A stretch of 64,000 nt of DNA from an uncultured Holophagae bacterium (GCA_963710645.1 CAVQBD010000006.1:46550-110549); one strand, 5' to 3'. Shown: positions 1 through 62,869, counted from the first letter of the stretch. The notes: generated from the sequence alone by a model not told the origin. Numbers and translations are program-made.

Positions 1-594
1 CGCTACACCTTCTCCAAAGTTGTCAGCGTTCAGGGCACCTATCATCGGGGCCGTTCGCTGAACGCGCGCCAGATCACCGAGGACATTCTCCAGGGGCGCC
101 CCATCGACCCCGAACGCCTGGAACCGCTGTTGTACGAATCGGGCCGGATCCGGGTCAACGTGAATCCGTGGCGCAAGGTCCGGCTGTGGGCCGGCTACGG
201 CAGCGAACGCTCCAACGAGGACGACGACTGGAATCCACGCACCGAACTCGGTCTTGCGGTCAACAACATCGGCAACATCGGCTTTGACTTCGCCGCCTCG
301 AATTTCCGAACCGACCGCGGCGACGACTCGTTTGACTCCATCTATGCCTCCCTCGGCAAGACCTTCGGCCGGAAGGTCTACCTGAGCCTCGACTACACCA
401 CTTCGCTGTCGGTCTTCACGTACGAGGATTCCGAGGGCGGCACCATCGAGGTCACCCCCGAGAGCGACCGCTGGGCGCTGTCGGCCAATGTCAGCCTCAA
501 TCGCACCTTCTCACTGCTCTTCATCGGCGAGTGGGTGGATCAGGACGACTTCGAGGAGACCCGGGCGCTTGCGGGGATGACTGTTCGCTTCTGA
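1..594 (+). CDS. outer-membrane beta-barrel protein, C-terminal fragment (5' end outside window)
   Basis: Frame 1 is open from base 1 to the stop at 592-594. It shows an alternating beta-strand-like pattern and ends ...GMTVRF with a C-terminal Phe, typical of OMP barrels. No finer family call is possible by eye. Confidence 0.45.
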   Translation, partial: RYTFSKVVSVQGTYHRGRSLNARQITEDILQGRPIDPERLEPLLYESGRIRVNVNPWRKVRLWAGYGSERSNEDDDWNPRTELGLAVNNIGNIGFDFAASNFRTDRGDDSFDSIYASLGKTFGRKVYLSLDYTTSLSVFTYEDSEGGTIEVTPESDRWALSANVSLNRTFSLLFIGEWVDQDDFEETRALAGMTVRF

Positions 595-599
595 CGCAA

Positions 600-636
600 G
601 TGAATAGTGAATGAGTGAATAGTGAATAGTGAATAG
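600..636. repeat. tandem heptamer repeat (GTGAATA)n, left arm of inverted pair around the 699-1136 ORF
   Basis: Read directly: gtgaatagtgaatgagtgaatagtgaatagtgaatag. It is the reverse complement of the arm at 1137-1165. Confidence 0.85.
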
Positions 637-698
637 GGGTCTGTACGGGCTGCCTGGGTGTTGAAGAAAGGCTGAGAGGCTTTTGACAGTTTCTGGTC

Positions 699-1136
699 AT
701 GTGTTCCTTTCGAATATTGAAAGAGGACACCGTGGACCAGAGATCGCAGACTCCTTCGTATCGAGAACTCATCTGCTGGCAGAAAGCGATGAGGGTGAGC
801 CTTTCCGTTTATCGCGCAACCGACGGATTTCCACCGGATGAACGATTCGGGTTGATCAGCGAGGCTCGCAAGACATCCAGGTCCGTCCTGTTCAACATCG
901 CGGAAGGCTACCAGCGGGACACACCAGCAGAGTTCATCAGGTTCCTTCAAATCGCACGCGGATCTCAGAGCGAGTTGGAGTCCCAGATCATTCTTGCCGA
1001 GAATCTCAATTACCTCTCCAAAGACGAGGCCAGAACTCTGTTGGAAGATACTGCAGAGTTGGGGAGAGTCCTGTTCGGGCTCGTACGCTCGCTCAGGTCA
1101 AAAACGCAGACCTCACGAAATCAATCCAAAACCTGA
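699..1136 (+). CDS. four-helix-bundle protein (23S rRNA intervening-sequence protein family)
   Basis: Family-typical motifs: ...SYRELICWQKAM..., ...RFGLISEARKTSRSVLFNIAEGYQR..., ...FLQIARGSQSELESQI. Size is about 145 aa. Confidence 0.8.
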   Translation: MCSFRILKEDTVDQRSQTPSYRELICWQKAMRVSLSVYRATDGFPPDERFGLISEARKTSRSVLFNIAEGYQRDTPAEFIRFLQIARGSQSELESQIILAENLNYLSKDEARTLLEDTAELGRVLFGLVRSLRSKTQTSRNQSKT

Positions 1137-1165
1137 CTGTTCACTATTCACTATTCGCTATTACC
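1137..1165. repeat. tandem heptamer repeat (TATTCAC)n, right arm (inverted copy of 600-636)
   Basis: Read directly: ctgttcactattcactattcgctattacc. It starts immediately after the stop codon of the four-helix-bundle ORF. Confidence 0.85.
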
Positions 1166-1171
1166 TTGCTC

Positions 1172-2581
1172 CTAGTACCTATACCACTCCGCTTTGTACG
1201 GCCCGTCCACCGGGACGCCGATGTACTCGGCCTGCTCCGGGGTGAGCTCGGTCAGCTTGGCGCCGAGCTTGTCGAGGTGCAGCCTCGCCACCTCCTCGTC
1301 GAGCTTCTTCGACAAGGTCGTCACGCCGACCTCGTGCTCGTTCTGCCACAAATCCAGCTGGGCCAGCACTTGGTTTGTGAACGAGTTGGACATGACGAAG
1401 CTCGGGTGGCCGGTGGCGCAGCCCAGATTGACCAACCGGCCCTCGGCGAGCAGGAAGATGGCGTGGCCGCCGGGGAAGGTGTACTTGTCCACCTGGGGCT
1501 TGATGTTGAGCTTGGTGACACCCGGCATCTCGTCCAGCGCGTCGACCTGAATCTCGTTGTCGAAGTGACCGATGTTGCAGACGATGGCCTGATCCTTCAT
1601 CCGGCTCATGTGGTCGGCTGTGATGATGTCTCGGTTGCCGGTGGTGGTCACATAGATATCGGCGTGGGGGAGGGCGTCTTCAACCGTGACCACCTTGTAG
1701 CCGGCCATGCACGCCTGCAGGGCGCAGATCGGGTCGATCTCGGTCACCCACACCTGGGCGCGATGGGCCCTGAGTACCTCGGCAGAACCCTTGCCCACGT
1801 CGCCGAATCCACAGATCACGGCCACCTTGCCGGCGACCATGACGTCGGTTGCGCGCTTGATGCCGTCCACCAGCGATTCGCGGCAACCGTAGACGTTGTC
1901 GAATTTGGATTTGGTCACCGAGTCGTTGACGTTGATGGCGGGTATCAGCAGCTCGCCCTTGTCGGCCATCTGGTAGAGCCTGTGGACGCCAGTCGTGGTT
2001 TCTTCGGAAACCCCCTTCAGCCCGTCGACAACGTCATGCCAGAACCTCGGGGCGATGCCCTGAGTTTCCTGGAGGATGCGATGGATGATGGCCAGCTCCT
2101 TGTTGTCGGTGGGTTCGGCGAGGATCGACGAATCTGCTTCCCCCGCGTAGCCGCGGTGGACCATCAACGTGGCATCGCCGCCGTCATCCACGATCAGATT
2201 CGGACCCTGACCGTCGGGCCAGGTGAGGGCCTGTTTGGTGCACCACCAGTACTCCTCGAGGGTTTCGCCCTTCCATGCGAAGACCGGAACGCCGGCCGCG
2301 GCGATGGCTGCCGCCGCGTGATCCTGGGTGGAAAAGATGTTGCAGGAAGCCCACCGGACATCGGCTCCAAGCTCCACGAGTGTCTCGATGAGCACTGCAG
2401 TTTGAATGGTCATGTGAAGAGAGCCGGCGACTCGGGCGCCCGCCAGAGGTTTCATCGGCCCGTATTTCGCTCGGGTCGCCATCAGCCCGGGCATCTCCTT
2501 CTCGGCGATATCGATCTCCCGCCGTCCCCAGTCCGCCAGCCCGATGTCCTTGACTTTTAAATCCGTTGCCGTCGTCGTCAT
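1172..2581 (-). CDS. ahcY: adenosylhomocysteinase
   Basis: Full-length match by eye to AhcY: ...[24 protein letters not shown]..., ...[15 protein letters not shown]..., and NAD site ...[15 protein letters not shown].... Start taken at the MTTTATD Met; the ORF track begins 6 codons upstream. Confidence 0.95.
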
Positions 2582-2781
2582 TCGCAGCCCCCTTCTCAAA
2601 CCCGTAACACGTGCAAGTCGTGGAGGATTCTACCTAACCCGAAAACTGTCGACGAACAGGAAGGTGACGTTATCCGTCCGAGCGGGCATCTTTCGGCGTT
2701 GCTGTCGGTTGTCCCATCGAATGCTGTCAATTGTATCCATACGGCCATACTGCGGGACTGGTCCCCGAAGACGGAGAACTG

Positions 2782-2811
2782 TTACATTTTGGTGCCGTTA
2801 TGACGTACAAT
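2782..2811 (+). promoter_or_regulatory. candidate sigma70-type promoter upstream of the NusG-like gene
   Basis: TTACAT (2782-2787), an 18 nt spacer, then TACAAT (2806-2811), inside a locally AT-rich non-coding stretch (about 2690-2880). Sequence match only. Confidence 0.25.
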
Positions 2812-2883
2812 GTTCAAAAGTGGTGGTGTTTTCTCTAAAGTGTCGATCTTGTGAGAGAAAATATTCGGGGGAGAATCTCAACA

Positions 2884-3405
2884 ATGGGTGAGTTGTCTCA
2901 GCAGTGGCTTGTGGTGCGCACGAAGGCGCGGCAGGAGAAGACCGCCGTGCACCATTTGGCCCAAAGGGAGGTGATTCCCTATTGTCCTATGTTTCTCCAA
3001 CCGCCATGGCACCCGCGGGCCCCCCGGGGGCCGGTGCCGCTCTTTTCAGGCTACATATTTGTTCGGTGCAACCTCACGGAACAACTGAACGCAGTGCGAT
3101 TCTGTCCGGGGGTGCTGGCGCCGGTGGCATTCGGTGGTGAGATAGCCATCGCGGACCAGGGTCTCATCGACGCGCTCAGAGGGCGCGAGGGATCACGCGG
3201 CTACGCGCTGCCGGTGGAGCAGGAGGAGGGCATGCCGATGGGTGCCGTCGTCCGCCTGATGAGCGGTCCGTTCGCGGGTATCGAGGGTGTGTTCAACGGA
3301 TGCCTGCGTGGCGGGCAGCGTGCAAAGGTCCTCCTGGAGCTGCTGCGCGGCCGGCACGAGGTGGAAGTGGATTACAGCTCGCTGGCGCTGGTGCGAGCGG
3401 GCTAG
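2884..3405 (+). CDS. NusG-family transcription antiterminator paralogue (RfaH/UpxY-like), head of EPS locus
   Basis: NGN-like N-terminus (WLVVRTKARQEKTAVHHL...PLFSGYIFVR) plus a KOW-like C-terminus (GAVVRLMSGPFAGIEGVF). It sits at the 5' end of a long co-directional polysaccharide operon. Confidence 0.8.
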   Translation: MGELSQQWLVVRTKARQEKTAVHHLAQREVIPYCPMFLQPPWHPRAPRGPVPLFSGYIFVRCNLTEQLNAVRFCPGVLAPVAFGGEIAIADQGLIDALRGREGSRGYALPVEQEEGMPMGAVVRLMSGPFAGIEGVFNGCLRGGQRAKVLLELLRGRHEVEVDYSSLALVRAG

Positions 3406-3488
3406 GTCGCCGCCTCGAAAGGCGCGCGGCTGCTAAAAATTTAAGAATCAATAGGTTGCACATGCAATCAACCTGCGGTAGCTTTGTC

Positions 3489-3721
3489 TAGAATGCTGAA
3501 TTTTGAAATTTTAATTTTGAATTGCCCCCGCCCGATACGGTATAGAGAATGAGCTCCATCTCCCCATGGACGATCCGATGTGCCCCGACATTGCCACAGG
3601 AAGCCTTCGGCCACGCGTCGTCTCCTCTGGCCTGGGGTATACCGAGTTGGAAAGTCGAAGATCGCAGCGGGGGAGGGGGAATTCAAAATTCAAAATTAAA
3701 AATTGAGAATTCAGAATTCAG
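3489..3721. repeat. ORF-less hairpin element: AT-rich heptamer arms with C/G clamps around a core of about 135 nt
   Basis: Left arm is tagaatgctgaattttgaaattttaattttgaattgcccccgccc (3489-3533). Right arm is gggggagggggaattcaaaattcaaaattaaaaattgagaattcagaattcag (3669-3721). The arms are imperfectly complementary. Confidence 0.75.
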
Positions 3722-3767
3722 TTGCTCCACGGAACTTCCGACTTCCCCTGAAATCCCGAGGCATTGA

Positions 3768-4793
3768 ATGACCGGAAATGACCACTTGCCCGTTTTGGTG
3801 ACCGGTGCCGCCGGTTTCATCGGCTTTCATCTTTCAAAGCGGTTGCTTGACGACGGGCGCACGGTCATTGGGCTCGACAATCTGAACGATTACTACGACG
3901 TCAGTTTGAAGGAGGCTCGGCTCCATCAGCTTCGTCAGCGTGAGGGTTTCGAGTTCGTCAAACTCGACCTGGCCAATCGGCTCGGCATGGAGAGCCTGTT
4001 CAACGCCAACTCCTTCAGCTGCGTGGTCAATCTCGCAGCCCAGGCCGGCGTCCGGTATTCGATCGAAAACCCCCACTCCTACATCGACTCGAACCTGGTG
4101 GGCTTCACGAATATCCTCGAGGGCTGTCGTCACCGCGAAGTACCGCACCTCGTGTATGCCTCGTCGAGCTCGGTTTACGGCGCCAACACCGCGATGCCGT
4201 TTTCGGTGCACAACAACGTAGACCACCCGCTGTCGCTGTACGCGGCTTCAAAAAAGGCCAACGAGTTGATGGCCCACACCTACTCGCACCTCTACGGTCT
4301 GCCGACCACCGGCCTCCGGTTTTTTACCGTGTACGGGCCGTGGGGCCGGCCGGACATGGCTCTTTTCAAGTTCACCCGCAACATCCTCGCTGGGGAACCC
4401 ATCGACGTCTTCAACTACGGCAAGCACCGCCGGGACTTCACCTACATCGACGACATCATCGAGGGTGTGGTGCGGGTCATGGCCAATATCCCTCAACCGG
4501 ACAAGAACTGGGACTCTGATCATCCCGACCCGGGTACCAGCGCCGCGCCCTGGCGGGTCTACAACATCGGCAACAGCGAGCCTGTGGAGTTGATGCGATA
4601 CATCGAGGTAATCGAGGAGTGCCTCGGCCGGAACGCCGAAAAGAACATGTTGCCTCTCCAGCCGGGTGACGTTCCGGACACCTACGCCGATGTGACCGCA
4701 CTCGCGGACGACGTCGGTTACCACCCCGACACACCTGTGGAAGTCGGGATCAGGAATTTCATTGACTGGTACAGGGACTACTACGGCGTCTGA
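3768..4793 (+). CDS. NAD-dependent epimerase, UDP-glucuronate 4-epimerase-like
   Basis: Extended SDR fold: [14 protein letters not shown] Rossmann motif, YAASK catalytic motif, and ...[17 protein letters not shown]... typical of UDP-GlcA 4-epimerases (Cap1J/LpsL type). Confidence 0.85.
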
Positions 4794-4796
4794 GTT

Positions 4797-4832
4797 AACA
4801 AATTTTGAATTTTGAATTCTTATTTCTTAATG
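4797..4832. repeat. AT-rich heptamer arm (left) flanking the four-helix-bundle gene 4890-5285
   Basis: Read directly: aacaaattttgaattttgaattcttatttcttaatg. It lies directly after the epimerase stop. Confidence 0.8.
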
Positions 4833-4889
4833 AAGGGATTGGTCAAGACGTTGGATCTGGGCGTGTGACCAACCGGAGGTACGGGACCG

Positions 4890-5285
4890 TTGGCGGAGGC
4901 GAAGGCAAATCCGATTCGGGACAAGAGCTTCGCTTTCGCGGTATCGGTTGTCCGCCTTTGCAAGCACCTCAATACCGCCCGCGAGTTTGTTATTTCGAAG
5001 CAGTTGCTCAGGAGTGGCACAAGCATTGGGGCGAATATCGAAGAAGCGACAGCGGCGGTAAGCCGACGGGATTTTCTTTATCGAATGACCATCGCATCGA
5101 AAGAGTCGAGGGAGGCCCTTTACTGGCTCAAGCTGTTGCAGCATTCGGATCTCATTCACGATCTGGACGTGAGTGCAGAAATATCGACCGCCAAAGAGCT
5201 CGTTCGGATGCTCACGGCAATTGTGAGGACAACCTCCGGCCGACTGAATCAGGAACAAACACACCCCAATTCAGATTCAAACTGA
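4890..5285 (+). CDS. four-helix-bundle protein (23S rRNA intervening-sequence protein family)
   Basis: Family motifs: ...KSFAFAVSVVRLCKHL..., ...QLLRSGTSIGANIEEA..., ...ASKESREALYWLKLL.... Apparent TTG start. Confidence 0.8.
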   Translation: MAEAKANPIRDKSFAFAVSVVRLCKHLNTAREFVISKQLLRSGTSIGANIEEATAAVSRRDFLYRMTIASKESREALYWLKLLQHSDLIHDLDVSAEISTAKELVRMLTAIVRTTSGRLNQEQTHPNSDSN

Positions 5286-5354
5286 CGGTCCGCGGAGCTT
5301 CGAAAACGACCTCCCGCGCCGTGAATCGAGCCGATCACCAACCGTTCGCCTGCC

Positions 5355-5404
5355 GGGCGGGTGGGGCAATTGAGAATTCAAAATTAAGATCTGAGAATTC
5401 AAAC
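5355..5404. repeat. G-clamp plus AT-rich heptamer arm (right) flanking the four-helix-bundle gene
   Basis: Read directly: gggcgggtggggcaattgagaattcaaaattaagatctgagaattcaaac. It shares gaattcaaaatt blocks in inverted orientation with 4797-4832. Confidence 0.8.
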
Positions 5405-5408
5405 ATTC

Positions 5409-6815
5409 ATGTGTGACGACCTCTCATTTGGAGCCGCCGTGAACCAAACCGCCACCGACCTCCTCAACCGCATCACCAACCACGACGCCGAAATCGGCAT
5501 CATCGGCATGGGGTATGTCGGGCTGCCGCTTGCCCTGGCCTTTGCCGAAAAGGGATTCAAGGTCCTTGGATTCGATGTTGACGACGCCAAGGTGGAGGCA
5601 CTCAAGCGAGGCGAGTCCTACATAAAGCATCTCGATCCCGACCGCGTGTCCAAGGCGGTGAACTCAGCCGGTCTGTGGGCGACCTCCGACTTCACTCGAA
5701 TCGGCGATCCGGATGCGATTTTGATCTGTGTGCCAACCCCATTGACACCCCAGCGCGAGCCCGACATGACCTACGTCCGCCGAGCGGCGTACCAGATCCG
5801 GGAGTACCTGCGGAGGGGCCAGCTCATCATTCTCGAGTCCACGACCTACCCGGGCACGACCGATGAACTCATCCTGCCCATTCTGGATGGAACCAAAGAA
5901 GAACGAACGCGATCCGCCGGCGGAGAGGGAGAATCCGATATCCGCAGCGGCGGGCTGAGATCAGGTTGTGACTTTTTCCTGGCCTTTTCGCCGGAGCGCG
6001 AAGATCCGGGCAACCCGACCTTCGGCACCACCAATACGCCCAAGGTGGTTGGTGGAGTCGACGAGGTCTCGGGCGATCTTGCCGAGGCCCTGTATGGCGA
6101 AATCATGGATCGGACGGTCCGTGTGTCTTCGGCTCGCGCGGCGGAGGCGACAAAACTCATGGAGAATATCTTTCGCTCGGTGAACATCGCGCTGGTCAAC
6201 GAGCTCAAGATGATCTGGGACCGTATGGACATCGATGTCTGGGAGGTGCTTGACGCCGCCGAGACCAAGCCCTTTGGTTTCATGCGGTTCAACCCAGGTC
6301 CGGGTCTTGGTGGCCACTGCATTCCCATCGATCCCTTCTACCTGGCGTGGAAGGCTCGTGAGCATGGGGTGACGACCAAGTTCATCGAGGTCGCTGGCGA
6401 GGTGAACATCCGGACCCCGGAGTACGTCGTAGAAAAGCTCGTTCGGGCGCTCAACGACCGCACCAAGTCGGTCAAGGGCTCCAAAGTCCTGGTCCTTGGC
6501 ATCGCCTACAAGAAGGACATCGACGATCCGCGGGAGAGCCCGGCATTCGAGATCATCGAATCGCTGCTCCGCCTCGGGGCGGACGTGAGCTATTACGATC
6601 AGTTCATCCCCACGGCTCCCAGGATGCGGAGCTGGCCGGGTCTGCCCCCCATGCACTCCATCGATCTGGAAACCGATCTCGGGGAATTTGACGCTGCGGT
6701 GCTCGTTACCGACCACTCGGACGTGGACTACGAAACGCTGGCGAAAGAGCTCGACCTCATCATCGATACCCGTGGCGTGTACCGCGACCCACGGCCGAAT
6801 GTCGTCAAGGCCTAG
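5409..6815 (+). CDS. wbpA: nucleotide-sugar dehydrogenase, UDP-N-acetyl-D-glucosamine 6-dehydrogenase-like
   Basis: N-terminal IGIIGMGYVGLPLALAFA Rossmann motif and catalytic ...GLGGHCIPIDP.... Sits with WbpB- and WbpD-like genes downstream. WecC (UDP-ManNAc dehydrogenase) cannot be excluded by eye. Confidence 0.75.
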   Translation: MCDDLSFGAAVNQTATDLLNRITNHDAEIGIIGMGYVGLPLALAFAEKGFKVLGFDVDDAKVEALKRGESYIKHLDPDRVSKAVNSAGLWATSDFTRIGDPDAILICVPTPLTPQREPDMTYVRRAAYQIREYLRRGQLIILESTTYPGTTDELILPILDGTKEERTRSAGGEGESDIRSGGLRSGCDFFLAFSPEREDPGNPTFGTTNTPKVVGGVDEVSGDLAEALYGEIMDRTVRVSSARAAEATKLMENIFRSVNIALVNELKMIWDRMDIDVWEVLDAAETKPFGFMRFNPGPGLGGHCIPIDPFYLAWKAREHGVTTKFIEVAGEVNIRTPEYVVEKLVRALNDRTKSVKGSKVLVLGIAYKKDIDDPRESPAFEIIESLLRLGADVSYYDQFIPTAPRMRSWPGLPPMHSIDLETDLGEFDAAVLVTDHSDVDYETLAKELDLIIDTRGVYRDPRPNVVKA

Positions 6816-6887
6816 GATTGAAACTCGATGTGAAATCATGCGAATGGGACCTCAACGTGATTCCACTTTCTCGACGGGACCTGAAAA

Positions 6888-7850
6888 ATGGCTAACTTTG
6901 CTCTGACCGGCGTTGCCGGCTACGTCGCACCGCGCCATCTGCAAGCGATCCGAGACACCGGGAACACCCTGGTGGCAGCGGTTGATCCGCACGACTCGGT
7001 GGGTGTCCTGGATCGGTTCTTCAACCAGGTGGCGTTTTTCACCGAGTTCGAGCGCTTCGATCGCCACCTCGAAAAACTCAGGCGGCGTTCCCCCGAAGAG
7101 GGCGTGCAATGGCTTTCGGTGTGCGCACCAAACCACCTGCACGATGCCCATATCCGGCTCGCCCTGCGCGTTGGTGCTGACGCCATCTGCGAGAAACCGT
7201 TGGTCCTCAACCCGTGGAATCTGGATGCCCTGGCGGAACTCGAGCGTGAGTCCGGTCAAAGGGTCTTCACCGTACTCCAATTGAGGGTGCACCCTGCGCT
7301 GATCAAACTCAAAGAGAAACTCGACAGTGCCGCCGGCGCCAAGCGACATGACGTTCGCCTCAGCTACGTCACCGGCCGTGGCCCTTGGTACCGCTACGCA
7401 TGGAAGGGTGATGCGTCGCGTTCCGGTGGAGTGGCCACAAACATCGGAATCCACTTCTTTGACATGTTGATGTGGTTGTTTGGGCCGGTCCAGGCGAGTG
7501 AAGTCCATGTCTCGACCGAGCAGCGAGCCGCAGGTTTTCTGACCCTCGATCGCGCTGATGTCACCTGGTTTCTGTCCATCGATCCCGCCGACCTGCCCTT
7601 CGAAACCAAGCCGGGTGAGCCCGCGACCTATCGCTCTGTGAACGTGGATGGCGAGGAGGTGGAGTTCTCGGGTGGATTTACGGATCTTCACACCCGGGTC
7701 TACGAGGAGACCTTGGCCGGCAGGGGATTTGGAATCGAAGACGCTCGTCCTTCGGTCGATCTGGCCCACTCGATTCGGCAGGCCAAACCGATACGGCCAT
7801 CTGGACCGCATCATCCGATGATTCAGAAACATCGGAATTTTGAATTTTGA
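6888..7850 (+). CDS. wbpB: Gfo/Idh/MocA oxidoreductase, UDP-GlcNAcA 3-dehydrogenase-like
   Basis: MANFALTGVAGYVAPRHLQAIRDTGN..., ...CEKPLVLN.... Size and position between WbpA-like and WbpD-like genes fit. The last codons and the stop lie inside the heptamer repeat (...RNFEF*). Confidence 0.75.
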   Translation: MANFALTGVAGYVAPRHLQAIRDTGNTLVAAVDPHDSVGVLDRFFNQVAFFTEFERFDRHLEKLRRRSPEEGVQWLSVCAPNHLHDAHIRLALRVGADAICEKPLVLNPWNLDALAELERESGQRVFTVLQLRVHPALIKLKEKLDSAAGAKRHDVRLSYVTGRGPWYRYAWKGDASRSGGVATNIGIHFFDMLMWLFGPVQASEVHVSTEQRAAGFLTLDRADVTWFLSIDPADLPFETKPGEPATYRSVNVDGEEVEFSGGFTDLHTRVYEETLAGRGFGIEDARPSVDLAHSIRQAKPIRPSGPHHPMIQKHRNFEF

Positions 7851-8062
7851 ATTCTTAATTCTCAATTTGGAATCTTGGGCAGTGGATCTGTGATGCGGAA
7901 AATATCGTTGCCGATGAACGATCGTCGCTGGATCGAGGTCTCTCCGCCAGCATGAGTTTTTGTTGCAGCATCGCACCAACAAACCAAAAATTTAGATCCA
8001 GAGCCAAAAAAAAATTAAGAATTAAGAATTAAGAATTAAAAATTGAGAATTAAGAATTCGGA
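7834..8062. repeat. ORF-less hairpin element: AT-rich heptamer arms around a core of about 120 nt
   Basis: Left arm is ggaattttgaattttgaattcttaattctcaatttggaatcttggg (7834-7879). Right arm is ...aaattaagaattaagaattaagaattaaaaattgagaattaagaattcgg (about 8011-8062). Confidence 0.75.
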
Positions 8063-8069
8063 ATGAACC

Positions 8070-8726
8070 ATGAAGTATTTTGTCCACGAATCATCATACG
8101 TTGACGACGGTTGCGAGATCGGTGACGGTACCAAGATCTGGCACTTTTCTCACGTGCAATCCGGAGCAAAAATCGGCGCCCAGTGCGTGCTTGGACAGAA
8201 CGTCAACATCGGAAACGACGTGGTGCTTGGAGACGGTGTCAAAATCCAGAACAACGTCTCGGTCTACACCGGCACCGTCGTCGAAGACTACGTTTTCCTC
8301 GGACCCTCATGCGTGCTCACCAACGTCACCAATCCGAGATCGGAGATCAACCGGCACGCGCTCTACGAAAAGACCGTGCTGCGCCGTGGTTGCACGATCG
8401 GCGCGAACGCCACCGTGGTCTGCGGTGTCACCATCGGCCGGTACGCCTTTGTGGGCGCCGGCGCAGTTGTCACAACGGACGTGCCGGACTATGGGCTGAT
8501 GGTCGGGGTACCGGCAAAGCGCGTGGGGTGGATGAGCCGCCATGGTCTGCCGTTGGGCACGGTGGACAGCGGCGGCGTGATGAGGTGCCCCGAGAGCGGG
8601 CTGAGATATCGCGAGCAGGATGGTGTTGTGTCCTGCATCGACGTGGGCGAGGACGAAGAGTTGGCCGCCGACCTGCGCGCCGGCCTTGATTCGTACCGAA
8701 AACTGACGGGACGTTCAATCGAGTAG
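8070..8726 (+). CDS. wbpD: left-handed beta-helix N-acetyltransferase, WbpD-like
   Basis: MKYFVHESSYVDDGCEIGDGTKIWHFSHV... and hexapeptide repeats match the WbpD/WlbB type N-terminus. Genomic context is with wbpA/wbpB-like genes. Confidence 0.75.
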   Translation: MKYFVHESSYVDDGCEIGDGTKIWHFSHVQSGAKIGAQCVLGQNVNIGNDVVLGDGVKIQNNVSVYTGTVVEDYVFLGPSCVLTNVTNPRSEINRHALYEKTVLRRGCTIGANATVVCGVTIGRYAFVGAGAVVTTDVPDYGLMVGVPAKRVGWMSRHGLPLGTVDSGGVMRCPESGLRYREQDGVVSCIDVGEDEELAADLRAGLDSYRKLTGRSIE

Positions 8727-8852
8727 AATCTGGCAGCTCGATGAGAATCCCCATTCTTGTACCGGTTGTTCGCCACAGACGTGGTGACGTGTTGAACGAC
8801 GCCGGACGTGCTTCGTACAACAACAAACGATAGCCGACACGGAGATTTCGCC

Positions 8853-32224: not shown

Positions 32225-32735
32225 CGCCAGCCAAGTTACACGTTAAACGTTGCGCGTTAAACGTCCGCCCGACCCCGCTTCGACCTGTCACCCTGAGCGA
32301 GCGAGTTCGACGAGCGAGTCGAAGGGTCTCCTCAAGTAGAAAAGAGAATTCCTGGGCAAGCATCGCCCGTCTGCACCGGTGGAGATCCTTCGACTACGCG
32401 GCCCTTTGGGCCGCTCCGCTCAGGATGACAGCGATGGGGGTATGCAACGGGCTCACGCTAAACGTTCCCATCGATCCCCGCCTACTGTCGGACCGAGTGG
32501 TTTCGGGGAGGGTGGGTGGGGAATTCAGAATTGAAAACTCAAAACTCAGAATTCAGCGTCCGACGTTCAACGTTCAACGTTCAACGTTCAACATTCAACA
32601 TTCGAGATTCCCACCCGCTCCCGCCTGCCGTTGGGGGGGGGTGGTAGGGAATTGAGAATTGAGAATTAAGAATTGAAAATTTCCCGTCTCACCCACAAAC
32701 CCCAACGTTCAACGTTCAACGTTTAACTTTCAACT
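32225..32735. repeat. composite repeat region: ACGTTAA/CAACGTT heptamers, nested palindrome, G4 motif and AT-rich heptamer arms
   Basis: Components: acgttaaacgttgcgcgttaaacgt (32240-32264); inverted pair 32287-32331 / 32381-32429; GGGGAGGGTGGGTGGGG (32505-32521); gaattcagaattgaaaactcaaaactcagaattcag; (caacgtt)n at 32563-32606 and 32703-32735. Confidence 0.8.
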
Positions 32736-41422: not shown

Positions 41423-41533
41423 TCGAATTTTGAATTCTCGATTCTCAATTTTGATTTCCCCCGCGTCCCAGCCAGAGGACGGGGGGCGGGTGGAAATTCA
41501 AAACCCAAAACTCAAAATTCAGAATTCTCGATC
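41423..41533. repeat. ORF-less hairpin element (AT-rich heptamer arms plus C/G clamp)
   Basis: Read directly: tcgaattttgaattctcgattctcaattttgatttccccc - about 19 nt - gggggcgggtggaaattcaaaacccaaaactcaaaattcagaattctcgatc. It is flanked by gcgaatttcgagttgcagattgcagatttcccc (41331-41363) and CAACGTT-like repeats (41545-41570). Confidence 0.8.
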
Positions 41534-41629
41534 CAGCGTTCGACTTTTAACGTTCAACGTGTAACGTTGAGCGTCCAACCCTTATCCAAAACGCCATGGA
41601 ACCGCAGGTGCGGGTACACTGCCCGCGTC

Positions 41630-47622: not shown

Positions 47623-47812
47623 GGATGCTCGATGCTGGATGCTCGATGCTGGATCCCCCACCCATCCGACCGGCGCAAGGAACAAGGAACAGGGAGCAAG
47701 GAACACCCCCCGCCCGGTGTAGAAAGTGTAGAGGTTGCGGAGGCAGGGGACTGCACCATTCGAAATTCGAAATTCGACATTCGAATCCCAAATCCCGAGT
47801 CCCGAATCCCGC
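47623..47812. repeat. composite tandem-heptamer region
   Basis: Components: (GGATGCT/CGATGCT)n 47623-47655; CCCCCACCC; (AAGGAAC)n 47678-47705; CCCCCCGCCC; (ATTCGAA)n 47758-47786 running into (TCCCGAG/TCCCAAA)n to 47812. Confidence 0.85.
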
Positions 47813-47863: not shown

Positions 47864-49418
47864 CTAGGGAACCTCCCTCGGCCAACGAAAGGTGTCGCCG
47901 GTCTCGAAGTCGTCGATGAACGTGACCTGTTGGCCGTAGAAGGCAAACACCGCACCTTCGTTGTTCTGCCCCCCGTCGTAGAAGAAGCTTCCGATGGCCA
48001 AATCGTCGAAACCGTCGTCGTTGACGTCACCGGCGGCGGTGAGTGTGCGCGAAAACACGGCGCCGTCCTGCTCACCCTCGATCATGACGTTCGAGTAATA
48101 GGGCGTGCCCCACCGGGGCAGACCGGTGGTGTTGCCGTACCAGATGGTCGCAAGCCCGACGTTGTCCGGCCCGCCCACTTGGTCCCAGTTCTGGGCGCCG
48201 ATCACGATGTCGTCCAGACCGTCGCCGTTGAAGTCGCCGGCCTGCGCCAGGTGTCCTCCGACACAGTCAGCCTCGTAGAGTCCGGTGGCCACCCAGTCGG
48301 CGTTGTCGGGCGTTCCGTCGCTCCCCAAACCGTCCGCGGAACCATAGAACAACAGGACGATTCCGTCGGCGTTGTACACGCTGTCGTAGCTCCATGTGCC
48401 GACGATGAGGTCGTCATAGCCGTCGCCGTTGACATCGCCGGCGGCGACCCATGTCGGCCGCTTCGCCGGGTCCAGTCAGAAGGGCCTCGGCCTGATCGGA
48501 TTCGGCCCTCCAGTCGGCTGATGAGCTGGACGTGTCGGGGCCGAGACCCGCCGCCGAACCGTACCACAGGAATGCAACGCCTTCGTTGGTCTGGCCCATG
48601 TCGTAGTAGGGCGCGCCGACCATGACCTCGTCATAGCCGTCACCGTTGACGTCGCCCGCCGTTCCCACATGGATTCCGAAGTAGGCATTGGGCTGGTCCG
48701 AAGTGACGACCCAGTCGGCGTTCAGCGGTGTGCCTATGGGTCGTGATCCGTCGGGGTCGAGACCATTGGTCGATCCATGGAAGACCATGGCGGCCTCGAA
48801 GGCGAAGTTCGTGTAGTCGAATCCACCGACGATGATGTCATCGTACCCATCACCGTTGACGTCGCCGGCGGGGCCCATCCCCCAACCGAGGTGAGCCCAC
48901 TGAACACCCGCATGGCACCACCAGTCGTAGGTCGGATCGAGTGCACCATCGGCCCCGTAGTAAACAAAGACGGCGCCCTCGTCGTAAAAGAGAGGCGAGG
49001 GTTGATCCCAGTTCATCATCCCCACCATCACATCGTCATAGCCGTCGCCGTTGACGTCACCCGCGCCGGCCACTTGAAAGCCGAAGAAACCGTGTAGCTG
49101 CACATCGGGCGGATTCAGGGTCACATCCGGCGTGGCACCATAGCCGTTCTGGCCTCCGTAGAAGACCCACGCGACTCCCGCGTTCTCGGCGCCGTTGTCG
49201 AAGAGGCGGCCGCCGACGATCAGATCGTCATATCCGTCGCCGTTGACGTCGCCCGCTGCGGCAATGGAGTCCGCCGCCTGCGCGTCCGCCTGATTGCTTT
49301 CAAAGATCCAGAAGGCATCTGATGCGGACATTTCGTATCCCGCTGCGCCGGCCACGCCGGTCATGGCGACGACGGTAGCGCAGAAGATCCACACTAGAAG
49401 AAACAACCTGCTGTTCAT
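47864..49418 (-). pseudogene. secreted FG-GAP/VCBS-repeat protein, one frame change near 48440
   Basis: Signal peptide MNSRLFLLVWIFCATVVAMTGVAGA, then repeated ...AGDVNGDGYDD[LIV]IVG... calcium-binding FG-GAP units. The reading frame breaks in ...cgccgccggcg... and resumes as ...GDVNGDGYDDLIVGTWSYDSVYNADG.... Confidence 0.8.
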
Positions 49419-49653
49419 GGGCCCGTCTCCCTTCCGTCCTGAAGGCGTCTTTACGGCTCCGTCGATAGACTCAGCCCGAGCCCTGGAGCCACTGTCGCGA
49501 CTTTCCAATTTCGATAGATGAGCAAATGCTCATAGGCCTTTTCTCAATTTCGTCACCGTGTGATCGACATCTTACAGGATGTGAGCGTCAGGTCAATAGG
49601 CACCAACGGACACCGGTGTCAGCGTGGAGAGTCGGACGAGCGGTTGTGGCTTG

Positions 49654-50256: not shown

Positions 50257-50276
50257 CGCGTGAGTATATCGTCGAC

Positions 50277-50366
50277 GGGACTCGGGACTCGGGACTCGGG
50301 ACTCGGGACTCGGGACTCGGGAACGGCTCTTCAAATTTCGAATTTCGAACTTCGAATTTCGAGTTC
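50277..50366. repeat. (GGGACTC)6 followed by (ATTTCGA)n; inverted relative to 47758-47812
   Basis: Read directly: gggactcgggactcgggactcgggactcgggactcgggaacggctcttcaaatttcgaatttcgaacttcgaatttcgag. Confidence 0.9.
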
Positions 50367-53522: not shown

Positions 53523-53670
53523 AGTGAATAGAAAATGGTGAATAGTGAATAGTGAATAGTGAATAGTGAATAGTGAATAGGGCTGGGTTGGTTGTGATCA
53601 CCTCGGCGAGCAGAGCCCCGGGTGGATGGGCGGTTCTATTCACCATTCGCTATTCACTGTTTGCGATTCA
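53523..53670. repeat. ORF-less hairpin element with (GTGAATA)n arms
   Basis: agtgaatagaaaatggtgaatagtgaatagtgaatagtgaatagtgaatagtgaatag (53523-53580), a 55-nt GC-rich core, then ctattcaccattcgctattcactgtttgcgattc (53636-53669). Confidence 0.85.
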
Positions 53671-53677
53671 ATACCTT

Positions 53678-54408: not shown

Positions 54409-54546
54409 CTCTGAATTCTCAATTCTCGATTCTCAATTTTGAATTGCCATTTCCTTGTTGTCGGGTTCACCGATTAGGTGGCGGAATTCAAAACTTAAAA
54501 ATTTAATCTCAGAATTAAGAACTGAGAATTCAAAATTCAAAACTCA
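54409..54546. repeat. ORF-less hairpin element (AT-rich heptamer arms)
   Basis: Read directly: ctctgaattctcaattctcgattctcaattttgaattgcc - about 35 nt - ggaattcaaaacttaaaaatttaatctcagaattaagaactgagaattcaaaattcaaaactc. Confidence 0.85.
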
Positions 54547-55493
54547 TTTCCGATTGGGTGGTGGCAACGGACGCTGCGCCCCTCACCGATCTCTGCGAGA
54601 GCCGGGCTCTTGTTGCACTCTTCTGAGGCCCGGTCGCAGCTGACGGCATAACGGCAAGCGCCCGTGGGCCAGCTGCCCAGGTTGAACAACCCTTGTCGAG
54701 GCGGGCGCCATGCCGGGTCGGGGACAGGGGTCGCTGCGACCATGGCCGCGGTGTAGGGATGGGCCGGTCGATCGAGGAGGGAGTCGGCCGGTCCCTGCTC
54801 CACAATCACGCCGTCGAGGAGAACGGCGATGCGGTCGCAGACCTGGCGGACCACCCTCAAGTCGTGGGAAATAAAGACCATGGACAGAGAATGCCGATGT
54901 CGCAGTTCGTTCAAGAGCTTCAGGATCTCACCACGGATCGACACGTCGAGGAACGACACCGGTTCGTCGAGAATCAACAGCGCCGGGCCCGGAGCCATGG
55001 CCCGTGCGATGGCGATGCGCTGCCGTTCTCCACCCGAAAAAGCGCTCGGCAACCGTCGGGCGGCGTCCTCCGGAAGACCGACGCGGGCCAGGAGCTCTCG
55101 AACCCGGGTGCGGCGTTCCGCGGTCGTGCCGATGCCAAAGGACACCAGCGGTTCTGACACGATGGTGCCCACCGACAACCGGGGGTCCAGTGACGCCAGG
55201 GGGTCTTGAAAGACCGCCTGGAACCGCCGCCGCAGCGGGCGCACTCGCCGCGGCGTCATGACCGAAATCGGCTGGCCGTCAAAATGGACGGACCCGGCGT
55301 CCGGCCGTTCGAGGGCCAGCAGGAGCCGCGCGAGCGTAGATTTGCCGGCACCGGAGGATCCGACGACGCCCAGGACCTGACCAGCCTCGACCCGTAAATC
55401 CACGTTGCTCAGGGCACGTATGACATGACCGGATCCGCCGCGTGCCGGGTAATCGCGGCAGAGACCGACAGCTTCGATGATCGCCTCAGACAT
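54537..55493 (-). CDS. oligopeptide/dipeptide-type ABC ATPase (DppF/OppF-like)
   Basis: Walker A GVVGSSGAGKSTLAR, signature FSGGERQRIAIARA, Walker B LILDEPVSFLD, Cys-rich C-terminal extension. The start overlaps the upstream ATPase stop by 8 nt. Confidence 0.85.
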   Translation of the reverse strand: MSEAIIEAVGLCRDYPARGGSGHVIRALSNVDLRVEAGQVLGVVGSSGAGKSTLARLLLALERPDAGSVHFDGQPISVMTPRRVRPLRRRFQAVFQDPLASLDPRLSVGTIVSEPLVSFGIGTTAERRTRVRELLARVGLPEDAARRLPSAFSGGERQRIAIARAMAPGPALLILDEPVSFLDVSIRGEILKLLNELRHRHSLSMVFISHDLRVVRQVCDRIAVLLDGVIVEQGPADSLLDRPAHPYTAAMVAATPVPDPAWRPPRQGLFNLGSWPTGACRYAVSCDRASEECNKSPALAEIGEGRSVRCHHPIGNEF

Positions 55494-57700: not shown

Positions 57701-57918
57701 GAAAAGAGTGAAAAGTGAATAGTGAATAGTAAAAAGTGGTTTGGATCGGCGTGAGTGTCTCGCTGTCACGTCGGTCTCGGGACCGCCATCTATTCACTAT
57801 TTGCTATTCAGTTCAACTCGGGACTCGTCCCCTCCCACCCATGCGTTGAATCCATCCGAGCCCCGAGCCCCGAGTCCCGAATCCCGTCCGGGATCCCCAT
57901 TCTATTCACTATTCACTT
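57701..57918. repeat. composite repeat region: (GTGAATA)n hairpin, then GGGACTC/CCCGAGC heptamers, then a second (TATTCAC)n
   Basis: Components: gaaaagagtgaaaagtgaatagtgaatagtaaaaagtg (57701-57738); tctattcactatttgctattcag (57789-57811); ccgagccccgagccccgagtcccgaatcccg (57855-57885); tctattcactattcacttgc (57900-57919). Confidence 0.85.
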
Positions 57919-57954: not shown

Positions 57955-59151
57955 ATGGATTCTCCACTCAATATCCTGATTGTCGCCACCAAGTCGCCGT
58001 GGCCGCCTATGGACGGCGGCCGGGTGGTGATTCTCGAGACCATCGATGCGTTGACCGCGGCCGGCCATCGGGTAACTCTGGTGACACCGTCAGAGCCGGG
58101 TGCCGACAACGACGAGATCCACAGGCGGCTTTCCGAACGGTGCCGAGCCGAGCTGGTCCCGGCCAAGCTCCGCAGTACGCGAAACCTACTCCTCACGTCG
58201 CTGCTCAAGAGACGTCCGGTGACCGTGGTCCGTCACGAACTCAAACCCGTGCGCCGGCGGGTGGCCGAGTTGGTTGCAGGGGGGAGCTTCGATGTGGTGC
58301 AGGCGGAGCAGGTACAGGCCATCTCGCAGGCAGAGCCCGCCACCCGGAAGGGAATTCCCCTGGTTTATCGAGCCCACAACGTGGAGAGCTCCCTGTGGAC
58401 TTTTGCAGCGGGATTCGGCCGTCCACTGACGTCGGCCCTGCTGAGACGGGAGGCGAGGCGTCTGACCCTGTGGGAAAGGGATACGATCCGGCGGGCTGCC
58501 GCAACGGTAGTGCTCACCGACCTCGACCTTGATCCCATGAGACAGGCTGTGGGCGACGGGCCGCTGATCGAGAAGGTGCCGGTGCCCTATCCCAGCGAGT
58601 TGCCGTCCGGCGAAACACCGCTGGAGGGTCGTCCGGCGGTGGTCACGCTGGCGAGCCAAGCGTGGCTTCCGAGCCGACAGACGGCGCGCCAAATCGCCGA
58701 GACCTGGTGGCCGGTGGTTCGTCAACGCCTGCCCGAAGCGGTGCTTCACGTCTTTGGTGGTGGCGCCTGGGAGGAAGATTGGGACGGGGTGCGCATCCAC
58801 CCTCCGCCGGAGGAGAGCATCCAGGTTTTTGCTGGCGGCGCGGTTGTGGCGATTCCCACCCGTCACCCCACCGGCATTCCGGTCAAGGGACTGGAGGCCT
58901 GGGCGCGGGGATTGCCGTTGCTGGTCTCCTCGGAGTCGGCGCGTGCCCTGGAGGGCTCTGATGAAGTCGACCTTGCAGTGGCCGATGGTCCTGAGGCGTT
59001 TGCCGCGACATTGGCCAGACTCGCCGATGATGGCGAACTGTGTGGCCGCCTTGTGGACGGCGGCAGGAAACGGTTGCGCTCGCACCATGATCCTAAACTC
59101 ATCGCAGAGCAGTTCACCGAACTTTATAGGCGGGTGAGGTCTCGGTCTTAA
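57955..59151 (+). CDS. glycosyltransferase family 4
   Basis: MDSPLNILIVATKSPWPPMDGGRVV... N-terminus typical of GT4. The C-terminal half has ...AIPTRHPTGIPVKGLEAWARGLPLLVS.... Confidence 0.8.
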   Translation: MDSPLNILIVATKSPWPPMDGGRVVILETIDALTAAGHRVTLVTPSEPGADNDEIHRRLSERCRAELVPAKLRSTRNLLLTSLLKRRPVTVVRHELKPVRRRVAELVAGGSFDVVQAEQVQAISQAEPATRKGIPLVYRAHNVESSLWTFAAGFGRPLTSALLRREARRLTLWERDTIRRAAATVVLTDLDLDPMRQAVGDGPLIEKVPVPYPSELPSGETPLEGRPAVVTLASQAWLPSRQTARQIAETWWPVVRQRLPEAVLHVFGGGAWEEDWDGVRIHPPPEESIQVFAGGAVVAIPTRHPTGIPVKGLEAWARGLPLLVSSESARALEGSDEVDLAVADGPEAFAATLARLADDGELCGRLVDGGRKRLRSHHDPKLIAEQFTELYRRVRSRS

Positions 59152-59245
59152 ATTTTCAATTTTCAATTCTCAATTTTGAATTCCCCCCACGCACCCCCAA
59201 GTAGATCAACAATTGAGAATTCACAATTCAAAATTGAGAATTTAG
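59150..59245. repeat. ORF-less hairpin element (AT-rich heptamer arms plus C-run)
   Basis: Read directly: aaattttcaattttcaattctcaattttgaattcccccc - about 20 nt - aacaattgagaattcacaattcaaaattgagaatttag. It sits between convergent stops, and both stop codons lie at or within the arms. Confidence 0.85.
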
Positions 59246-60183
59246 AGTTCGAGGTCATTGAGAGCGGCGAGGCCTGCCTCGAAGGCACGTGTGTCGCGGT
59301 CCCAGGTGGCAGGACGGAGGGATCCGAGAAATGCACCGTAGAGCCGCCGGCCCGACAACCGGAGACGCGCGCCGGAGCGGAGCGCCGACGCCGCCTTGCG
59401 GGCACCTTCCGGCCCTCCCCGCCAGCCGGCAAAGCGGACCAGATCGGCCCACATGAACTCCGGGTGGTAGGGCGCGGCCGAGCCCGAGCTGGCGGCTATG
59501 GTTGCGCCGTGGTGGTGAGTCACCTCGAATGACGGCACGACGTCCACCCGCCAACCCCCATCCCTGGCCGCGACGCAGAAGTGCAGGTCCTGACAATAGA
59601 ATCGATAGCCGTCGTCCAAAGGACCGATCGTGTCCCATGCCTCGCGTCGGATGGCCATGGCAGCCCCCGATACCCAGTCCACCCCCGTTCCGGCGACGCG
59701 ACCCGGAGGCTTGATCAACCGGTACCCAGGGATGCGGCCGAACAGCGAGGGCAGTCCCGAGGCTTGACCGAAGAGCCACAACGGTGTCGGCTCCCGTCCA
59801 GCGCTCCATTGCGGTGAGCCGTCCGGGTAGCGGAGTTCGGCACCGGCGACACCGAGACGGGGGTCGCGGGCGAAGGCTGCGCGGACTGCGGCGACTGCCG
59901 GCGAGGAGATCTCGGTGTCGCTGTTGAGCAGCAGCAGAATGTCCCCCCGGGCCTCGGCCAGCCCGCGATTGCTGGTGACGGAGAATCCCGAACGGGTTGG
60001 ATTGGTGAGTAGGAGAACCTGTGGAAAACGACTCGAGACGGCCTCTGCAGTCCCATCGGTGGAGGCGTCATCCACCACAATGACCTCGAGATCGGTGGCC
60101 GAGCGGAGCACCGAACCGAGGCAACGCAGCGTCATCTCGCGGGTTGAGTGGGTGGGGATGACGATGGAAAGAGACGTCGACAT
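59242..60183 (-). CDS. glycosyltransferase family 2
   Basis: MSTSLSIVIPTHSTREMTLRCLGSV...VIVVDDASTDGT...LLLNSDTE... (GT-A fold with a DXD-like motif). Confidence 0.85.
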   Translation of the reverse strand: MSTSLSIVIPTHSTREMTLRCLGSVLRSATDLEVIVVDDASTDGTAEAVSSRFPQVLLLTNPTRSGFSVTSNRGLAEARGDILLLLNSDTEISSPAVAAVRAAFARDPRLGVAGAELRYPDGSPQWSAGREPTPLWLFGQASGLPSLFGRIPGYRLIKPPGRVAGTGVDWVSGAAMAIRREAWDTIGPLDDGYRFYCQDLHFCVAARDGGWRVDVVPSFEVTHHHGATIAASSGSAAPYHPEFMWADLVRFAGWRGGPEGARKAASALRSGARLRLSGRRLYGAFLGSLRPATWDRDTRAFEAGLAALNDLEL

Positions 60184-62866: not shown

Positions 62867-62869
62867 ATA

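Follow-up and report, generated by a model that had tools for sequence, protein, structure and literature searches.

Four-helix-bundle genes flanked by inverted heptamer arms: candidate counterparts of 23S rRNA intervening sequences between protein-coding genes

The intervening sequences (IVSs) that fragment 23S rRNA, and the open reading frame (ORF) conserved in them, have been unexplained for some 35 years. The same is true of the 'four helix bundle / S23p / Avd-like' proteins, a very large family for which no function is known except in diversity-generating retroelements (DGRs), and of the excess of intergenic heptamer repeats described as STRR (short tandemly repeated repetitive sequences), TAACTGA, GGGAATC and TTTTGAA. 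The second and third of these meet in a 64,000-nt stretch of DNA from an uncultured Holophagae bacterium (CAVQBD010000006.1:46550-110549; 61% G+C), which we call the window. It contains two genes for four-helix-bundle (4HB) proteins, each lying between two inverted arrays of tandem heptamers. Why should genes of this family be found in such a setting, and between protein-coding genes rather than in rRNA?

We think it probable that the cassettes are compact hairpins without a promoter, lodged between protein-coding genes and carrying the 4HB gene as cargo, and that they are of one kind with the ORF-bearing IVSs of 23S rRNA. We regard the cassettes as IVS-type elements in mRNA because true 4HB-bearing IVSs, and the IVS of Coxiella, exhibit the same layout with a heptamer stem.

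The two cassettes and the IVSs that they resemble

Both genes are full-domain members of the family. Gene 1 (ORF1) scores 112.2 bits against PF05635 and 104.8 bits against TIGR02436, and gene 2 (ORF2) 78.9 and 94.3 bits, where the cut-offs of the two hidden Markov models are 33.8 and 24 bits; PF05635 is the only Pfam match of either. Among solved structures, the sequence of gene 1 matches 2GSC (XCC0516 of Xanthomonas; profile E = 5e-38) and that of gene 2 matches 2RLD (E = 7e-25), both of them pentamers. The two proteins are about 16% identical, and therefore belong to different 4HB subfamilies. The span of 699-1136 given to ORF1 in a first-pass annotation of the window requires correction, as the start is most likely GTG 732 and not ATG 699, judging from a GAGGA Shine-Dalgarno sequence and the agreement with a 134-aa database entry. 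The G+C content at third codon positions is 0.63 for gene 1 and 0.61 for gene 2, compared with about 0.76-0.85 in the neighbouring genes.

Each gene is bracketed by inverted heptamer arms (Table 1), as the first-pass annotation had proposed. The arms are head-to-tail 7-nt units, present in at least three copies in intergenic sequence, and so are STRR-like; they are detected by Tandem Repeats Finder (TRF) and by a scan for period 7. The duplex formed by the arms of cassette 1 has an energy of -47.8 kcal/mol (z = -7.5), unmatched in 200 dinucleotide shuffles, and that of cassette 2 has -23.7 kcal/mol (z = -3.4), with 2 of 200 shuffles as good. When the whole cassettes of about 600 nt are folded as RNA, the minimum-free-energy and centroid structures alike retain a terminal arm-arm stem, with z-scores for the complete folds of -2.8 and -6.0. 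Thus both cassettes possess the complementary borders forming an enclosing stem that characterize an IVS. The stems comprise about 25-35 bp, a length compatible with cleavage by RNase III. The cassettes occupy nearly the entire spacer between the flanking genes, and neither the arms nor the cassettes contain promoter or terminator signals above chance. The right arm of cassette 2 had been drawn over 5355-5404; within this the degenerate array at 5366-5404 stands, falling under the strict array threshold, while 5355-5365 is a G-rich box and not heptamers.

No rRNA was detected in the window by Rfam, so that the cassettes do not lie inside 23S or 16S rRNA at helix 9, 25 or 45, which is the strict location of an IVS. 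Both are placed between protein-coding genes, and the genes around them have housekeeping functions or belong to exopolysaccharide (EPS) synthesis.

True IVSs nevertheless have the same construction. A tblastn search of plasmid records located a 4HB ORF in an unannotated stretch of the replicon AZO_p2 of Azospirillum lipoferum 4B. Rfam identifies it as a 23S rRNA gene (LSU, 2549 bits), and the 4HB ORF lies about 1.2 kb into that gene in the sense orientation. The ORF is flanked by CAGAGGA-CGGATGA-CAGAGGA-CGGAGGA and the complementary TCCGTCC-TCTGTCT-TCTGTCA-TCCGTCT, generating a stem of about 32 bp and -64 kcal/mol. Three more metagenomic protein families found with this ORF (loci L208-L226, the Azospirillum locus being L207) occupy the same position within LSU rRNA genes, with stems of (CAGAAGT)n/(TCTGACT)n, (CAGGAGA)n/(TCCTGTC)n and (CAGAGGA/CAGATGA)n/(TCTGTCC)n. 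There are therefore four independent IVSs in helix 45 of 23S rRNA that carry a 4HB ORF, and all have inverted heptamer stems. In the published IVS of Coxiella there is a 28-bp stem that is cleaved by RNase III, together with three tandem GACAGAT heptamers, variable in number between strains, and the 5' cut of RNase III falls at the first repeat (PMC4990558).

The window cassettes share with the ORF-bearing 23S IVSs of Leptospira and Coxiella burnetii (S23p) the protein family, the placing of the ORF within a loop closed by a long terminal stem, the building of that stem from tandem heptamers, the sense orientation, a compact layout and a sporadic distribution. They differ in lying between protein-coding genes and not in rRNA helix 25 or 45. 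Moreover, the ORF of the Coxiella IVS is reported to be decaying (PMC4990558), whereas gene 2 of the window is under purifying selection.

The unit begins behind the upstream gene's stop codon with the left, G/T-rich heptamer array, then a short leader with a Shine-Dalgarno sequence and the 4HB ORF of about 120-135 aa. The right, C/A-rich array is the reverse complement of the left, often touching the 4HB stop codon, and is followed by the next gene. This layout recurs in many phyla, both in conserved operons and in 23S rRNA helix 45, and provides an annotation rule by which such insertions may be recognized. Four true IVSs, the heptamers of Coxiella, an association across phyla and a series of split operons (see below) thus uphold the earlier suggestion of an IVS architecture between protein-coding genes.

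These features suggest how a cassette might function. It would be transcribed by read-through from the host operon, and the arms would form a stem of about 25-35 bp in the transcript, both strands of which would be cut by RNase III as in the IVSs. Cleavage would release the 4HB mRNA and separate the flanking cistrons, leaving half-stems on their ends. Such processing would account for the tolerance that hosts show to insertion into essential operons or rRNA. More speculatively, the 4HB pentamer might bind its cognate heptamer array and thereby aid the persistence or spread of the hairpin family, of which ORF-less hairpins with the same arms could be the non-coding members.

Heptamer arrays beside 4HB genes in other genomes

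A profile of gene 1 relatives gave 80 loci from GTDB species genomes, 78 of which were usable. They come from Planctomycetota, Acidobacteriota, Chloroflexota, Gemmatimonadota, Desulfobacterota, Nitrospirota, Elusimicrobiota, Kiritimatiellota, Clostridia, Bacteroidota and Proteobacteria, and none of the 80 lies inside 23S rRNA. Arrays are strongly concentrated at the 4HB genes in the usable loci: up to 150 nt from the ORF their density is 3.25 per kb, falling to 0.16 per kb over the rest of the surrounding ±3 kb. Intergenic regions adjoining a 4HB gene contain arrays in 73 of 153 cases (48%), compared with 28 of 173 other regions of the same loci (16%) and 10 of 244 in 80 unrelated control loci (4%). 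The odds ratio for 4HB-adjacent versus other regions of the same loci is 4.7 (P = 1e-9, Fisher's test).

Arrays are found on both sides of the gene in 23 loci and on one side in 27. Where there are two, they are inverted in 19 loci, direct in 2 and unrelated in 2. The flanks are complementary with z <= -3 in 33 of the 78, and in many loci the only two arrays within 6 kb are the pair around the 4HB gene. Flanking arrays are also present in 24 of 32 further loci from IMG/VR contigs. The arms have a consistent polarity, G exceeding C in 33 of 36 upstream arrays and C exceeding G in 31 of 38 downstream ones. Among the units themselves, AGT is seen upstream in 20 of 37 and ACT downstream in 22 of 39; AGTAGTC, AGTGGTT, AGTTCTC and AGTTGTC are the most frequent, and the AGTGAAT of the window conforms to this pattern. 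Unit variants of one arm are mirrored in the opposite arm, which is what maintenance of pairing would produce.

In 50 of the 78 loci the 4HB gene and its two neighbours all point the same way. The median adjacent spacer is 53 nt, and some of the operons interrupted are highly conserved. Cassettes lie between groES and groEL (L019), between the E1 alpha and E1 beta subunits of a 2-oxoacid dehydrogenase (L012), between hemA and hemC (L072), livM and livG (L045), lutA and lutB (L202), and, on the opposite strand, nrdB and nrdA (L205). These gene pairs are contiguous in bacteria generally, and the cassette is therefore the derived state. Taken with the IVSs, this indicates that IVSs, the 4HB family and heptamer repeats are parts of one type of element that colonizes transcribed spacers, including those of universal operons like groESL.

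The type of arm goes with the type of protein. Relatives of gene 2 in the cyanobacterium Nodosilinea (65% identity) and in three other loci (L200, L201 and L202) have arms of the TTTTGAA/GAGTTTT/TAGTTCT type; since they belong to different phyla, arm type follows the 4HB subfamily. Within the ORF1 subfamily protein identity and arm-unit similarity are weakly correlated (Spearman -0.15), a relationship confounded by host relatedness. On plasmids of Nostoc and Calothrix, the arms around 4HB genes are (GGGAGTA)n/(CCCTACT)n and (GGGTGTA)n/(ACACCCT)n. The agreement of arm type with subfamily in different phyla suggests that the protein may be the partner of the heptamer repeats.

A number of published repeats can be viewed in the same light. 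In Xanthomonas a catalogue of inverted GGGAATC heptamer pairs between operon genes has been compiled (Rehm et al. 2015, PMC4692102), and its row 15 abuts XCC0516, the 2GSC protein, a connection that the paper does not make (PMC4692102 supplement). Like the window arms these are convergent pairs of about four heptamers, 20-70 nt apart, between co-directional operon genes, with the G-rich arm on the left on either strand, and XCC0516 is the closest solved homolog of gene 1. They were read there as G-quadruplex formers, whereas the window arms are AT-rich or of the GTGAATA type, for which no G-quadruplex is possible. In Nostoc 7120 the heptamers TTTTGAA/TTCAAAA influence expression, and an unidentified binding protein has been postulated (bioRxiv 10.1101/2022.06.06.494920); the TAACTGA repeats of Beggiatoaceae and cyanobacteria are unexplained (PMC4679880). 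These and the cyanobacterial STRR resemble the arms in being intergenic tandem heptamers near start codons. They differ in having been described as direct repeats, of unknown function and binding partner, with no associated gene family reported. A full-text search of one library found no paper tying the 4HB family to heptamer repeats in general.

We put forward, as a tentative possibility, that 4HB proteins of the PF05635 family are sequence-specific partners of bacterial heptamer and octamer arrays. Each subfamily might recognize its own unit as RNA or single-stranded DNA, and drive hairpin formation, maintenance or copying into new transcribed sites, including the loops of rRNA helices. Were this true, the partnership would amount to a REP/RAYT-like or Avd-like propagation, possibly assisted by a reverse transcriptase (RT), that lacks a known catalytic domain, and it would account jointly for STRR, for the heptamers of Xanthomonas, Nostoc and Beggiatoa, and for the rRNA IVSs. 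In REP/RAYT systems (REPtrons; repetitive extragenic palindromes with their associated tyrosine transposases) a small gene lies between inverted copies of a repeat that is dispersed between genes, and the gene subfamily is matched to the type of repeat. The likeness is limited: HUH/Y1 nuclease motifs are lacking in the 4HB protein, and each arm is built as a tandem array where the REP is a single palindrome.

The age of cassette 2 and the competing explanations

A diverged relative of the cassette 2 locus (L193) has a 79%-identical 4HB protein at the same site, between the epimerase and the UDP-sugar dehydrogenase (DH), the DH proteins being 88% identical. The two cassettes align over 681 nt with zero indels, arms and untranslated regions (UTRs) included. 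Comparing the window with this relative, dN, dS and dN/dS are 0.062, 0.84 and 0.074 for the DH, 0.044, 0.74 and 0.06 for the epimerase, and 0.12, 0.46 and 0.27 for the 4HB gene (4890-5285 in the window, 780-1175 in the relative). The non-coding parts of the cassette are 82-84% identical, while about 50% of the synonymous sites of the flanking genes differ. From the gapless alignment and these divergences we conclude that cassette 2 is old at this site, with its gene under purifying selection and its non-coding parts under constraint. The lower dS of the 4HB gene relative to its flanks could reflect either extra constraint on the nucleotides, for instance from RNA structure, or exchange of the cassette later than the divergence of the flanks.

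A syntenic relative at a greater distance (L196) has the order AdoHcyase, NusG, ORF-less hairpin, epimerase and a 4HB gene with GGATTTC arms, then Wzz and a second 4HB gene, which has 66% identity to gene 2 and GAATTCT arms, and last an epimerase and a 4HB fragment. Its hairpin occupies the same position as the one at 3494-3724 in the window. When metagenomes were scanned with the downstream DH gene, all relatives stood at 67% identity or less, and none gave an orthologous epimerase-DH junction.

There are several points that weigh against the cassettes being IVS-type insertions. In the window alone, three of the four 4HB-adjacent regions have arrays at the strict threshold (hypergeometric P = 0.13), arrays being common there, and significance must therefore come from other genomes, where the gene calls behind the comparative statistics are heuristic. 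At the strict threshold 28 of the 78 loci lack a heptamer array. Some of these have arrays of 8-nt units, as in L029, L036, L044 and L056 (Flavobacterium, Nitrospirota and others), where there are inverted tandem octamer arms such as AGGTTCTA/AGGTTCTG, and the counts based on period 7 are therefore conservative. The arms of cassette 2 are imperfect. Its sequence divergence is that of a cassette that is old and stable at its site, so that recent insertion is not supported, and the purifying selection on gene 2 (dN/dS 0.27) is as much to be expected of a useful gene as of a selfish one. The first-pass annotation envisaged comparison with an orthologous locus lacking the insertion; no such empty site was found, L193 holds the same cassette, and no target-site duplication was observed. 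Finally, for this organism both transcription through the arms and their cleavage by RNase III are inferred.

What else might explain the observations? The 4HB proteins could be trans-acting nucleic-acid binders for which the arrays are operators, those adjacent to the gene being autoregulatory, with pairing between the arms incidental. The way in which arm type tracks the 4HB subfamily is consistent with this, as are the effect of the Nostoc 7120 heptamers on expression and the binding protein postulated for them (bioRxiv 10.1101/2022.06.06.494920), and relatives such as Avd do bind nucleic acid. Yet related arms are nearly always inverted (19 of 21 pairs) and their unit variants are mirrored, which indicates selection on pairing, and the same layout in rRNA is a proven substrate of RNase III. 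We regard a purely regulatory role as unlikely.

It might alternatively be argued that the adjacency is a coincidence, the heptamer hairpins being a general intercistronic device of the host for mRNA processing or stability, like REP sequences, in whose spacers 4HB genes merely land or survive. Arrays are indeed common in the window, where they occur in 16 of the 44 intergenic regions scored on a crude gene map, and most window hairpins have no ORF. In Xanthomonas, ORF-less hairpins lie between groES and groEL and among the atp genes (PMC4692102), and the other arrays of a locus tend to share the unit of the cassette (18 of 42 lie within distance 1, where between loci the share is 6%). However, the enrichment persists when 4HB-adjacent regions are compared with others of the same loci (odds ratio 4.7), and in many loci two arrays only are present in 6 kb, both around the 4HB gene. 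The same arms surround 4HB ORFs in 23S rRNA, where there is no intercistronic setting, and TTTTGAA/GAGTTTT-type arms accompany the ORF2 subfamily in a cyanobacterium and in unrelated high-GC bacteria alike. A coincidence on this scale seems quite improbable.

We are still more doubtful of a mobile element acting at the level of DNA, in which the arms would be the terminal inverted repeats of a unit like a miniature inverted-repeat transposable element (MITE) or an insertion sequence (IS), with the transposase elsewhere and the ORF-less hairpins as deletion derivatives. The inverted arms, the scattered copies with an AT-rich arm sequenced to about 1400x against 5x for unique sequence, the insertion of cassettes into operons and, in one hairpin loop of L193, a weak 4HB remnant in colinear order would all fit such an element. 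But there are no target-site duplications, including at the arm borders in the window; the ends are fuzzy, consisting of tandem arrays of variable length; and the loops of the ORF-less hairpins have no homology to the cassettes or to one another. No transposase is associated, and the flanked genes do not themselves encode an HUH Y1 (IS200/IS605-like) enzyme, PF05635 being their sole Pfam domain. Cassette 2 has, moreover, been stable at its site in a diverged relative.

The idea that the 4HB genes encode Avd accessory proteins of DGRs can be virtually dismissed: the homology (PF05635/PF22296), the database name bAvd given to some members and the pentameric four-helix bundle shared with DGR Avd (PDB 4DWL) are set against the lack in the window of an RT-like ORF or a template/variable repeat pair, the housekeeping or EPS nature of the neighbours and the lack of an RT beside a homolog that is itself named bAvd (L203). 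A control search of a phage collection for DGR avd genes gave no match. We retain the IVS-type hairpin cassette as the probable explanation of both 4HB loci.

Features of the window, ORF-less hairpins and other repeats

Table 1. Positions in the window of the cassettes, their neighbours and the heptamer-armed hairpins and double arrays.
Feature	Position	Strand	Remarks
OMP-like gene (end)	130-594		Upstream of cassette 1
Cassette 1 left arm	599-636		(AGTGAAT)n, about 5 units; starts 5 nt past the stop of gene 130-594; TRF, period-7 scan, pairing
4HB gene 1	732-1136	+	134 aa from GTG 732; 2GSC/XCC0516-like subfamily; alternative start ATG 699
Cassette 1 right arm	1137-1165		(ATTCACT)n; begins at the first base after the gene 1 stop; abuts AdoHcyase (stop at 1172)
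AdoHcyase	1172-2599	-	Convergent with gene 1; stop at 1172
NusG-like gene	2851-3405		
ORF-less hairpin	3494-3724		Between NusG-like gene and epimerase; TGAATTT arms plus C-rich/G-rich clamps; loop of about 130 nt
NAD-dependent epimerase	3768-4793		Upstream of cassette 2
Cassette 2 left arm	4797-4832		TTTTGAA/TTCTTAT-type heptamers; starts 4 nt past the epimerase stop; TRF and period-7 scan place the array at 4800-4832; pairing
4HB gene 2	4890-5285	+	131 aa, TTG start, GGAGG Shine-Dalgarno; 2RLD-like subfamily
G-rich box GGGCGGGTGGG	5355-5365	+	Just inside cassette 2 right arm; not heptamers
Cassette 2 right arm	5366-5404		Degenerate (GAGAATT/CAAAATT)n; ends 4 nt before the DH ATG
UDP-sugar dehydrogenase (DH)	5409-6815		Downstream of cassette 2
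ORF-less hairpin	7835-8062		Between oxidoreductase and acetyltransferase; GAATTTT/AATTAAG arms
ORF-less hairpin	41424-41528		GAATTTT arms with C/G clamps; short loop
ORF-less hairpin	53523-53671		AGTGAAT/ATTCACT arms as in cassette 1; z = -8.2
ORF-less hairpin	54410-54547		TCTCAAT/AATTCAA arms
ORF-less hairpin	57704-57814		AGTGAAT-type arms; seventh hairpin, absent from the first-pass annotation
ORF-less hairpin	59151-59255		AATTTTC/AATTCAG arms
(GGGACTC)n-(GAATTTC)n double arrays	50276-50362, 60203-60287, 62869-62920		
(GGGACTC)n-(GAATTTC)n double arrays	47756-47811, 57854-57886		Reverse orientation

Some 30 heptamer arrays, belonging to several unit families, occur throughout the window. Some of them form hairpins that have no ORF in the loop, and the six of these listed in the first-pass annotation are real; including a seventh, their arms pair with z = -4.2 to -8.2 relative to shuffles. 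TTTTGAA is the unit of cassette 2 and of five of the ORF-less hairpins. It had been suggested that they could be MITE-like derivatives of the cassettes, which our data do not support. There is no homology among the loops or with the UTRs of the cassettes, the common parts being only the heptamers, a short G-box and sometimes C-rich/G-rich clamps; the loops hold no 4HB remnant above a shuffled control, and target-site duplications are lacking. In the source metagenomes the AT-rich arm is present at about 1400x depth, compared with about 5x for unique sequence, and many contigs have hairpins with AT-rich arms and differing short loops, so that the hairpin family is far larger than the gene family.

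In L193 a hairpin of about 390 nt with heptamer arms (2706-3099) comes after the DH gene; its loop contains the possible decayed 4HB remnant, and beyond it lies a homolog of the gene at about 8850 in the window. The counterpart stretch of the window (6816-8807) has instead an oxidoreductase, a hairpin and an acetyltransferase. On the basis of this difference the hairpins mark junctions of gene gain or loss.

The G-rich box has the consensus GGG(C/T)GGGTGGG and lies on the loop side of A-rich arms, at 5355-5365, 32506, 41484, 42933 and 62958 and also in L193 and L196. The copy at 5355-5365 is identical in the L193 ortholog, and in ORF-less hairpins the box pairs with a C-rich clamp. The sequence GGGCGGGTGGG has 10 matches in the window where 4.2 are expected, with 3 of 100 shuffles as high; this enrichment is modest and suggestive only.

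Two other classes of repeat were noted. In one, (GGGACTC)n is followed head to tail by (GAATTTC)n at the ends of genes, and no hairpin is formed. The other (family D1) is a composite module of about 99 nt present three times (32505-32603, 32633-32731 and 41478-41576), comprising the G-rich box, a (GAATTCA-type)n array and (CAACGTT)n. The IMG/VR loci L190 and L191 have 4HB genes with (CAACGTT)n/(AACGTTG)n arms, which together with the module points to a third type of cassette in related organisms. Between heptamer arrays there is also a GC-rich palindromic element at 32265-32460 (GTCACCCTGAGCGAGCGAG...TCGAAGGG ... CCTTCGAC...CGCTCAGGATGAC), which we take to resemble a dispersed repeat of many soil and sediment genomes. 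The stretch 48198-49278, at a minus-strand gene (48414-49508), contains six repeat copies spaced about 200 nt apart in coding sequence (family D3); this gene probably encodes a repeat-domain protein unrelated to the cassettes. The possibility that stop codons in the repeat units act as a translational insulator in all frames was considered and dropped, since the enrichment was only weak, at 17 of 39 downstream units where 10.7 would be expected.

Some further observations concern the 4HB genes themselves. The 412-kb contig on which ORF1 lies also carries a paralog (P0002) with 79% identity to it. PADLOC gave marginal matches alone for the 4HB proteins (RmrT and CARF_HEPN, E = 1e-3 to 2e-3), which does not place them in a defence system. 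In two IMG/VR loci the 4HB match lies within a very long ORF, of 1276 aa in L168 (1134-4961) and 1028 aa in L175 (897-3980); these may be fusions or mis-called frames. Most close homologs of gene 2 and of the IVS ORF are on contigs of 0.5-2 kb, which fits assemblies breaking at the arms or in rRNA operons. The hairpin cassettes would thus explain the breaks seen in metagenome assemblies, and why so many homologs are found on contigs of about 1 kb.

The EPS clusters of three relatives (L196, L200 and L201) have small genes inserted between the biosynthetic genes, with up to three 4HB cassettes per 10 kb. The inserts also include the toxin-antitoxin pairs PhdYeFM/ParE, MNT/HepT and RHH/ParE, and within the UDP-sugar dehydrogenase there is an intein with a LAGLIDADG domain.

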